The translations under genes and the position numbers were made by a program. From Eledone cirrhosa (Eukaryota): a DNA stretch of 64,000 bases. Each line of letters begins with the position of its first letter. The first letter of the stretch is position 1. Positions 29,680 to 31,294 of this stretch are shown here, one piece after another. The DNA is taken from contig OZ024740.1 in assembly GCA_964016885.1 (NCBI GenBank), positions 26,660,001-26,724,000 of the forward strand, read 5' to 3'. The notes under the pieces are model-generated. The model worked only from the letters and a program-made list of their open reading frames with translations, was not told where the DNA came from and made no database searches.

Positions 29680-30624
29680 ATTTAGGAGCAGTTTAGGTAT
29701 GATACATTTTATTACTAATTATATCTAAATGTTTCTTCTCTCTTCATAATGTATTTTTAACTCTGATACTGGTTCAGTCTAGTTCAACTGAATTGGTCTG
29801 TCCCAGTCATTCATTGAGCAACATCGGTGAAGTTGGCACCCTTAACTCACAGTTGGGTGCGAATGCATTCATGTATATATGTGTGTGTCCGCATGTATCT
29901 GTGTGTTTCTAAATATATTATATATATATATATATATATATATATATATATATACGTATTACATATTGAATAATATACAGAAACTTTTTGAAACATTTTA
30001 AAGGCTTTTTCCTATGAATTTTTATGTGTGACGAATGTTACACGCATACTTATAAACATAAGCGAAAGATTCTAGCTTATTTTATAGCCTCAGTGAAAAC
30101 AGAGAGTTACGTAGTCTTGATAACAGCTAATGAGTGGTAAACGATGCCATTTACGATTACGTCTCCTTGTGTTTGCTGAGGCTGTAGGTATGACGTAGAT
30201 CACAACCTTAAATATGCAAATGTTTCTCAAAACCACCGCTGATATTATTCAATATATAATACGTAAATTTATATGTATACTGCTATATAGGAACACTAAT
30301 ACAATATATATATATATATATGTATATATATAAAACGATCTATGTAACATCAGAATTCTTATTTTGTTATCCATCGTAACTAAAAACTACGATTGCTGAG
30401 AGCTTTCCCCTGCTTACTCCTGTTTTTTACCAAAACATTCTCTTCTGAACACAATATACATACATATATATATATATATATATATATATATATATATATA
30501 TATATATATATATATATATATATATATATAGAGAGAGAGAGAGAGAGAGAGAGAGAGAGAAAGATGAAATCGAAAATGCAACTGGAGTCTTATTTTTAAA
30601 AATATATATATATATTTATTTGGT

Positions 30625-30664
30625 TCATTTACCGGTTTCGCAGTTCTTCTGCTTTTCAAAAGTA
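30625..30664 (-). ncRNA. Type I hammerhead, U3-A8 variant (family P)
   Basis: Reverse complement of 30738-30777 with one stem I substitution. Confidence 0.65.
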
Positions 30665-30737
30665 GAGTTGAGATGGAGGGTCTGTGGTTTTTCTCACATC
30701 TGATGTGATAAAAACCACAGACCCTCCATCTCAACTC

Positions 30738-30777
30738 TACTTTTGAAAAGCAGAAGAACTGCGAAACCGGTAAAGGA
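30738..30777 (+). ncRNA. Type I hammerhead, U3-A8 variant (UUGAAAA; family P)
   Basis: tactt-TTGAAAA-gcag(aagaa)ctgc-GAAA-ccgg-TA-aagga. Confidence 0.8.
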
Positions 30778-31294
30778 ACCAAATAAATATATATATTTTT
30801 TTTTAAATAAGACTCCAGTTGCATTTTCAATTTCATCTTTTTTTCTTTATACTTTCACTCGTGTAGGACACCTCGGTTATTTTTCATTTTGTAAAAAAAA
30901 CGTCACTTTCTAATATATATATATATATATATATATATATATATATAAACTTATTAACCTGTAATTGTAAGATAGCATTGTGATTTTTTTTATTCATTTC
31001 TCACTTTCTAATTTTATATATTTTTGTATTTCTTTCTAGTACTTTTATTGTCTCCTACTCTCATTCGATTAACCTATTCTATAACCTCCCTCCTCCACTT
31101 CATACACTATCCTTAGAATCTGCTGTATACATATCACTTTCAACGCTTGCCCGCGCCACTCAATCCTCTATTGTTCTCCAGGCAAGTTCAGCCAACCCTA
31201 CCTCCCACCAAATGCCATGATAGACTTATTTGTGTTTACAACAAATTTTAACCAATCCTCTTGACAACTACAATCTTCCCATATAAGGAAGTAC

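Follow-up and report, generated by a model that had tools for sequence, protein, structure and literature searches.

The window analysed here, a 64-kb stretch of DNA presumably from an animal genome, is AT-rich and contains many microsatellites and broken retroelement frames. In a self-search of the window, a repeat designated family P was recovered at four loci with seven arms, as many loci as an earlier note on this DNA had claimed, with 82-95% identity to the long arm of locus A. Three of the four loci (A, B and C) carry a head-to-head inverted 5' copy and form a palindrome, and the fourth (M) is unpaired. Element coordinates are counted from the central base of the palindromes (+1), which in locus M corresponds to 44441 on the minus strand. 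The copies and their features are as follows:

30458..30560, no strand: (TA)n followed by (GA)n at the short-arm end of locus A; likely target, with slippage
30561..30701, minus strand: short arm of locus A, running from +1 to about +141, without the tail; holds the +1 A; one change damages stem I of the ribozyme
30702..30913, plus strand: locus A long arm, +2 to +213
30740..30775, plus strand: predicted minimal type I hammerhead with a U3-A8 core (+43 to +49), 4-bp stem II, palindromic stem III and 3-bp stem I
30770..30866, plus strand: intron-like stretch from +70 to +166, its donor overlapping the cut triplet of the ribozyme, with a pyrimidine tract ahead of its acceptor
30782..30787, plus strand: AATAAA hexamer at +82, 10 nt past the predicted cut; motif only
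30852..30913, plus strand: 62-nt tail, on one arm of locus A only
30912..30948, no strand: (TA)n at the long-arm end of locus A; likely target
31424..31553, minus strand: locus B short arm, of a divergent subfamily; ribozyme core broken; +1 A at 31553
31554..31646, plus strand: right arm of locus B; covers +2 to +35 and then skips to the tail, with a short duplication
44222..44441, minus strand: locus M (unpaired), +1 to +213 with the tail, its 3' side ending in (TA)n; intact ribozyme whose stem I has 4 bp
44442..44486, minus strand: family sequence upstream of locus M, -1 to -45; TATAAAA at 44471-44465; predicted polymerase II core promoter
54995..55206, minus strand: long arm of locus C, from +5 to +213, with an intact ribozyme
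55207..55360, plus strand: locus C filler (3 nt) and short arm, +1 (55210) to +151; ribozyme intact; (TA)n end

No coding frame was found in +1 to +213 of family P, and no ORF lies inside or attached to the four copies in the window. Loci A and C have (TA)n on either side, and B and M on one side. In A, C and M the long arms reach about +213 and there meet (TA)n, as the earlier note had described for the full arm, whereas the tail end of locus B has no TA run. The truncation of the partner arm was likewise recovered in the short arms, whose 3' ends fall between +141 and +151, but the right arm of locus B jumps from +35 to the tail. Two discrete 3' ends, 62 nt apart, recur in the window and in X1, one of the four DNA runs (X1, X21, X4 and X18), out of 23 listed, that were mapped on 44222-44930. 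On the plus strand of locus B, one short tail motif is present in three copies (31416-31425 and 31587-31605), one of them at the outer end of the short arm, and this suggests repeated template jumps.

The three palindromes are centred on the same element base, at 30701 (A), 31553 (B) and 55210 (C). The shared central word described in the earlier note was thereby confirmed for all three, with the centre of locus B moved from 31552 to 31553. If truncation points were independent and spread uniformly over 150 nt, 0.27% of trials would place all three centres within 4 nt. The junctions are of at least three kinds: arm starts of +1/+2 in A and B, whose junctions are identical; +1/+5 with filler in C; and +3/+5 in a fold-back contig of run X4 (depth 2). 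The +1 A is carried by the short arm in all three palindromes (A, B and C), and in A and B the strand leading from the long-arm antisense into the short-arm sense carries A at its centre where the template would give T.

Few records in the mapped reads span a fold. Run X1 contributes one opposite-strand joint (44402/44438) among the joints listed, together with three more joints, of a kind not stated, with one side 5-14 nt from +1; no fold-backs are present among the loose ends listed for X21. Perfect hairpins tend to drop out of short-word contigs and PCR libraries. Such scarcity would also fit palindromes that are assembly or library fold-back artefacts, but the arms differ within a locus (at 3 of 114 sites in A and 7 of 114 in C, plus an AT block), the short arms stop at a family-wide position, and the +3 fold-back was found in another organism's run. 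An artefactual origin is scarcely conceivable.

Locus M provides a view across the fold point. The earlier note had the monomer stopping at the same word as the palindromes; instead, locus M runs to 44486 (-45), and depth in three runs passes the fold point to about 44495 before falling to zero. Because depth continues past the fold point, 44442-44486 of locus M can be assigned to the family. The records placed on the mapped interval comprise 4,355 of 16.3 million X1 contigs, whose summed depth is not a copy number, 2,953 of 12.5 million reads from X21, a reduced-representation library in which a few loci dominate, and 8 of 6.9 million X4 contigs; 10 of 12.8 million X18 reads were placed on 44222-44930, none of them on family P. 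From bin 44414-37 to bin 44462-85, depth falls by 82% in X1, 51% in X21 and 70% in X4, figures in which palindromes count twice downstream and upstream indels may reduce mapping.

In the usual polymerase II layout, a CCAAT box lies near -80, a TATA box near -30 and CA at +1. On the sense strand of family P, TATAAAA begins at exactly -30 and CA occupies -1/+1. A TATA motif at a comparable distance is found for 0.3-1.6% of 97,252 unmasked window positions, and one accompanied by CA for 0.03-0.10%. In 14 contigs of X1 and one of X4, the loose ends that extend beyond 44495 contain a CCAAT box at about -76 to -83, and the motif of this upstream region has no other occurrence in the window. One X4 contig adds at least 198 nt of further upstream sequence. 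The sequence here is rich in A and T, however, and the read consensus contains another TATA-like stretch near -60.

The 5' end is also fixed in unpaired copies, i.e., in those without an inverted partner. Among the loose ends listed, family sequence passes straight into (TA)n at +1 in 173 X21 reads and at +3 in 17 X1 contigs, while the short 3' end adjoins (TA)n in 55 X1 contigs. Since these loose ends are unpaired, neither the fixed 5' end nor the pair of 3' ends depends on the palindrome, and both are features of the whole family. The fold point coincides with a predicted polymerase II start, a prediction made from motifs in AT-rich DNA, and the fixed point is probably the start of a sense RNA. 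The defined RNA 5' end upstream of the hammerhead, which the earlier note had proposed, thus gains a TATA box at -30, CA, a CCAAT box at about -78 and unpaired ends, with the start itself still a predicted one. Alternatively, the fold point could be a DNA break or endonuclease site at the pseudo-LTR boundary, the palindromes having formed by post-insertion repair with no RNA start involved. Several inverted duplications in the window centre on (TA)n, and fold-back repair appears common there; however, the centres of family P lie outside microsatellites at a position that fits promoter geometry, and the short arm ends within the family sequence, at a discrete position, instead of in flanking DNA. 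This explanation is extremely improbable.

Retroviral minus-strand strong-stop DNA is formed by run-off at the RNA 5' end, and in L1 twin priming two target-primed cDNAs at one site give adjacent segments. Family P is likely a piece of the pseudo-LTR of a Penelope-like element (PLE), and its palindromes are probably two cDNAs joined at insertion, a reading that we hold with moderate confidence. The family likely works like a PLE pseudo-LTR insertion; it is known from ORF-less copies and has been placed in no named PLE clade. In the proposed mechanism, polymerase II would start at +1 of a copy that has the promoter, which may be a solo copy or the upstream pseudo-LTR of a longer element. A PLE RT-endonuclease, acting in cis or in trans, would then nick both strands of a (TA)n target, and each nick would prime a cDNA at +213 or +151, leaving the 62-nt tail on one arm only. 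Both cDNAs would run off the uncut RNA 5' end, like a retroviral strong-stop product, and their 3' ends would be joined head to head, whether bluntly, with an overlap of 1-2 nt or with a few filler bases. If the RT starts indeed lie 151 and 213 nt from the RNA 5' end, this would explain why every cDNA stops at +1. A single cDNA would yield a solo copy with +1 joined to the target, and copies reaching above +1, such as M (to -45), would come from read-through RNA of a longer or tandem master, begun further upstream. The ribozyme would merely be carried along without setting the 5' end, and copies starting at +1, lacking the promoter, would be dead ends. We tentatively suggest that most copies of this abundant family may be strong-stop products of a capped, unspliced and uncleaved sense RNA on which RT begins internally, close to the 5' end, with twin priming giving rise to the perfect hairpins. 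The likeness to the retroviral and L1 processes lies in the run-off at the RNA 5' end and in the two target-primed cDNAs per site; in contrast to L1 twin priming, both proposed family P arms copy the same RNA segment.

Biochemical work on a purified PLE protein offers a precedent for several of these steps. The protein nicks and extends both target strands, uses uncleaved RNA and starts RT at two internal sites, the interval between which equals the tail (PMC11167929). Head-to-head joining of two cDNAs, already put forward in the earlier note, fits the long-plus-short arms of family P as well as the published in vitro behaviour of the PLE protein, and we infer the joining step itself. An autonomous element that could be tied to family P was recovered neither in the window nor in metagenome or viral contigs, and searches with exact and degenerate ribozyme patterns returned no loci in the metagenome contigs and none in the viral contigs.

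The same sense RNA and start could also have produced the palindromes through one cDNA, which would be primed at +213, fold back, copy itself to about +151 and then be cut or joined. Such a snap-back would explain the identity within loci and the presence of a long and a short arm in all three; the fillers of locus C and of the X4 contig are palindromic and resemble snap-back products, and the available text of PMC8557442 attributes the tail to endonuclease resolution. To place the +1 base on the short arm in three of three loci, however, it would need an untemplated A and a 1-nt loop, and +151 is one of two discrete ends in the reads, as two RT starts predict (PMC11167929). Because a short cDNA cannot itself copy a tail and the long-arm strand has no templated centre base, the evidence from three loci favours two cDNAs over one snap-back, which we consider unlikely.

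Another possibility, raised in the earlier note, is that the palindrome is itself mobile, as an RNA hairpin or MITE-like DNA derived from one or a few masters and carrying ribozymes in both polarities. It would agree with the single junction form of A and B and with the similar extents of the long and short arms in all three palindromes, seen with few informative sites. In the comparison of arm variants, which excludes the AT block and has low power with only three informative sites, derived variants common to both arms number two in locus B and one in locus C (a 1-nt deletion), whereas no variant outside the AT block is common to one arm type across the family P loci. The within-versus-between comparison envisaged in the earlier note therefore points to sharing within loci at three sites, but the sites are few and both locus B variants also occur in other copies in the reads, so that the locus B subfamily may have had a palindromic master. 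Mobility of the palindrome as such is disfavoured by the three junction forms, the many solo copies with the same 5' end, the variants shared within loci but not by arm type, and outer ends that are unequal by 62 nt, unlike terminal inverted repeats; nor is ribozyme stem II ever formed in the predicted hairpin of the palindrome transcript (-210 kcal/mol for palindrome A). We regard this explanation as decidedly unlikely. A MITE or foldback DNA transposon was rejected as a counterpart of family P, given that the 62-nt tail makes the outer ends unequal and solo arms are common.

For rotifer PLEs, head-to-head junction palindromes have been read as the outcome of self-priming on antisense RNA, with an unspliced sense template not excluded (PMC3846280). 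Applied to family P, self-priming on an antisense template would have the advantage of being the published reading of such palindromes and would account for the kept intron-like stretch. The antisense RNA would, however, have to end exactly at the sense start predicted by TATA, CA and CCAAT, where solo copies end too, and PLE protein in vitro primes on nicked target DNA (PMC11167929). An origin of the junction by this route is very improbable here.

The hammerhead of family P is predicted to cut at GUA, after 30772 (+72) in the long arm of locus A. Stem I has three pairs generally and four in locus M, and among the seven arms the motif is intact in four, damaged in two and deleted in one. A strict descriptor matched four positions in the window, all in family P, against none in 19 of 20 shuffles and one in the other; a loose descriptor matched nine positions, against 0-2 in 20 shuffles. 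The descriptor was written after the motif had been seen and misses another hammerhead of the window, at 44054. In the arm alignment, 88% of 67 cells are paired, compared with 28-43% for slid controls, and no covariation is present. Rfam returned no matches at gathering across the whole window, missing the hammerhead at 44054 as well, and no hammerhead family among 70 weak matches to E=10 in 28000-33000; weak matches at the palindrome centres, mostly microRNA models fitting a hairpin, were dismissed. The hammerhead named in the earlier note is therefore borne out by core and helices in four of seven arms but not by Rfam at gathering, and we treat it as a real fold at the motif level and a predicted ribozyme.

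Folding energy supports neither the ribozyme nor an RT-start stem-loop, because the monomer folds are no more stable than shuffles (z -1.5 to +0.5); no significant fold was found at the 3' ends. Folding predicts a dimer formed via the palindromic helix III. Since the pairing probability of stem II is 0.0 in the palindrome transcript versus 0.8 in the monomer, ribozymes of both polarities are predicted to be nonfunctional in palindrome RNA. Ribozyme cleavage was rejected as the source of the 5' end: none of the seven arms begins at +73, and the 5' end lies 42 nt before the core. Some reads are cut at 44323-44370, beside the predicted ribozyme cut site.

The intron-like stretch spans the short 3' end (+151). 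It is recognised by motif only, with a threshold set after the stretch had been seen; at the strict setting, only the three complete long arms carry the intron-like pair, and at a looser one, nine other pairs appear. No spliced form is present among the forms listed in the DNA runs. In Penelope and Chlamys-3, a start site and a 5' intron are described within the pseudo-LTR (PMC2377424; PMC8557442). If the +151 RT start lies within a real intron, this would explain why such copies retain the intron.

Much of this architecture is already known from PLEs, a context that the earlier note did not name although such palindromes and tails are described there: head-to-head palindromes, tails, (TA)n targets and U3-A8 hammerheads are all on record. 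PLEs typically have a 5' copy in inverted orientation, a tail at one end and a (TA)n target (PMC8557442). EN+ PLE pseudo-LTRs share with family P the head-to-head 5' copy, the junction palindrome and the one-sided tail (PMC8557442; PMC3846280), as well as an AT-rich or (TA)n target and hammerhead and promoter motifs in the repeat. They differ in that family P has no attached ORF and a tail of 62 nt, compared with 30-40 nt in print, and in that its 5' ends are fixed at the predicted start, whereas the papers, in their available text, describe a high degree of 5' truncation.

Comparison with PAc (Poseidon of Anolis carolinensis) is of particular use for the 3' ends. Both have two 3' ends downstream of the hammerhead, and neither gives a sign of ribozyme cleavage setting an end (PMC11167929). 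The ends of family P lie 102 and 164 nt from stem II, and the first of PAc lies 111-118 nt into an ORF starting at stem II. In PAc, the starts and tail are in the ORF, with an AC-rich stem-loop, whereas family P has no coding frame and no significant fold at its ends. The main text of PMC11167929, in the part available, mentions neither solo copies nor palindromes nor transcription starts.

With respect to the ribozyme, PLE pseudo-LTRs have been described as carrying hammerheads of the U3-A8 variant, with a palindromic helix III and in opposite-strand pairs (PMC4209133). The hammerhead of Schistosoma Cercyon resembles that of family P in its U3-A8 core, G10.1-C11.1, palindromic helix III and short helix I, and in occurring as pairs on opposite strands 100-700 bp apart (PMC4209133). 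Unlike Cercyon, family P has no extra base between 9 and 10.1; its helix II has 4 bp, and no covariation was detected among its arms. Non-LTR retrozymes are also small and non-coding, with a type I hammerhead and kinship to PLE pseudo-LTRs, but they form head-to-tail tandems thought to circularise between two cuts (bioRxiv 10.64898/2026.07.22.740005). None of the four window loci of family P is a head-to-tail tandem, and their ends are not at the cut site.

The origin of PLE inverted ends is called unresolved in print (PMC3846280; PMC8557442), and in the literature searched, mainly the main texts of open papers, no description was found of a fold point coinciding with a predicted start site. 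With its fold point at a sense start predicted by TATA, CA and CCAAT, family P makes the question of PLE inverted ends testable and ties the two-site, two-strand activity of PAc in vitro to a genomic product. PLE start sites could become readable from assemblies for curators. If the strong-stop reading is true, PLE palindromes would be genomic records of the start site and argue against antisense self-priming, and many promoterless hairpin loci would have been seeded; many perfect hairpins of 140 bp are predicted, which could feed small-RNA silencing.

The window also contains a PLE-like element that is distinct from family P:

40189..44172, plus strand: broken PLE-like RT/GIY-YIG element, not family P; own hammerhead at 44054 and AATAAA; ends in the (TA)n of locus M

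A DKG motif, RT motifs, a cysteine linker, a GIY-YIG-like end and a long CA-rich spacer before the hammerhead were read by eye against the available text of PMC8557442. The RT fragment has no PDB match, no Pfam match at E<=0.01 and no RT or GIY-YIG match at E<=1; its atlas matches are eukaryotic clusters, in which DUF8422 occurs in 12-74% of members and, in one cluster, RVT_1 in 14%. The element has no sequence in common with family P and is therefore not proposed as its partner. A separate GIY-YIG-like fragment lies at 39266-39787 on the minus strand (Pfam E 0.003, below cut-off).

Two further repeat families show related arrangements. The second family (23878-24030, 31337-31403 and 54090-54160) has four arms from one site, with short and long 3' ends and a one-arm tail, and includes a head-to-head palindrome with a 17-nt filler, in which the start follows an initiator-like TCAGT. 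Its common arm start and one-arm tail lend support to the model proposed for family P, whereas its first base, lying on the long arm, reverses the +1 asymmetry of family P and counts against that model. No hammerhead was recognised in it. Locus B of family P follows a short end of this family. The third family (39863-40110, 46029-46118 and 47333-47876) has a canonical-core hammerhead with a palindromic helix III. Its 3' ends fall at two discrete positions about 90 nt apart, its 5' ends are variable, and it includes inverted 5' partners and tail-only fragments. Because the 5' ends of the third family vary, a fixed 5' end is not universal in the window.

Other inverted repeats are also present. 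At 28510-29912, three arms that are over 99% identical lie inverted and in tandem with (TA)n flanks, including a degenerate hammerhead-like stretch near 29595; an acceptor-like motif is common to this repeat (about 29550-29570) and the family P tail (about 30855-30870). The inverted arms at 37772-38397 are 100% identical, with a hammerhead-like core (37925 on the minus strand, 38206 on the plus strand), a duplicated tail and (TA)n flanks, and probably stem from a similar insertion that happened recently. Further inverted duplications, 58-72 nt long, occur at 2310-2607, 26354-26650, 36493-36701 and 54570-54903, with long (TA)n-rich centres at 2310-2607 and 54570-54903; they are possibly products of fold-back repair at nicked microsatellites, or tail-to-tail insertions. 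Isolated hammerhead-like cores lie at 1697, 2177 (minus), 21500 (minus), 24270 (minus) and 31979, and several unrelated hammerhead families are represented in the window. A broken non-LTR retroelement with an RVT_1 match occupies 5137-10358, and a second 3' fragment, 77% identical, lies at 57902-58411. Finally, a SINE-like repeat of 150-190 nt is present in about 10 copies that are 75-94% alike:

3348, 13069, 20649, 33719, 48500, 51209, 52072, 53190, 60056 and 60410: copies of the SINE-like repeat
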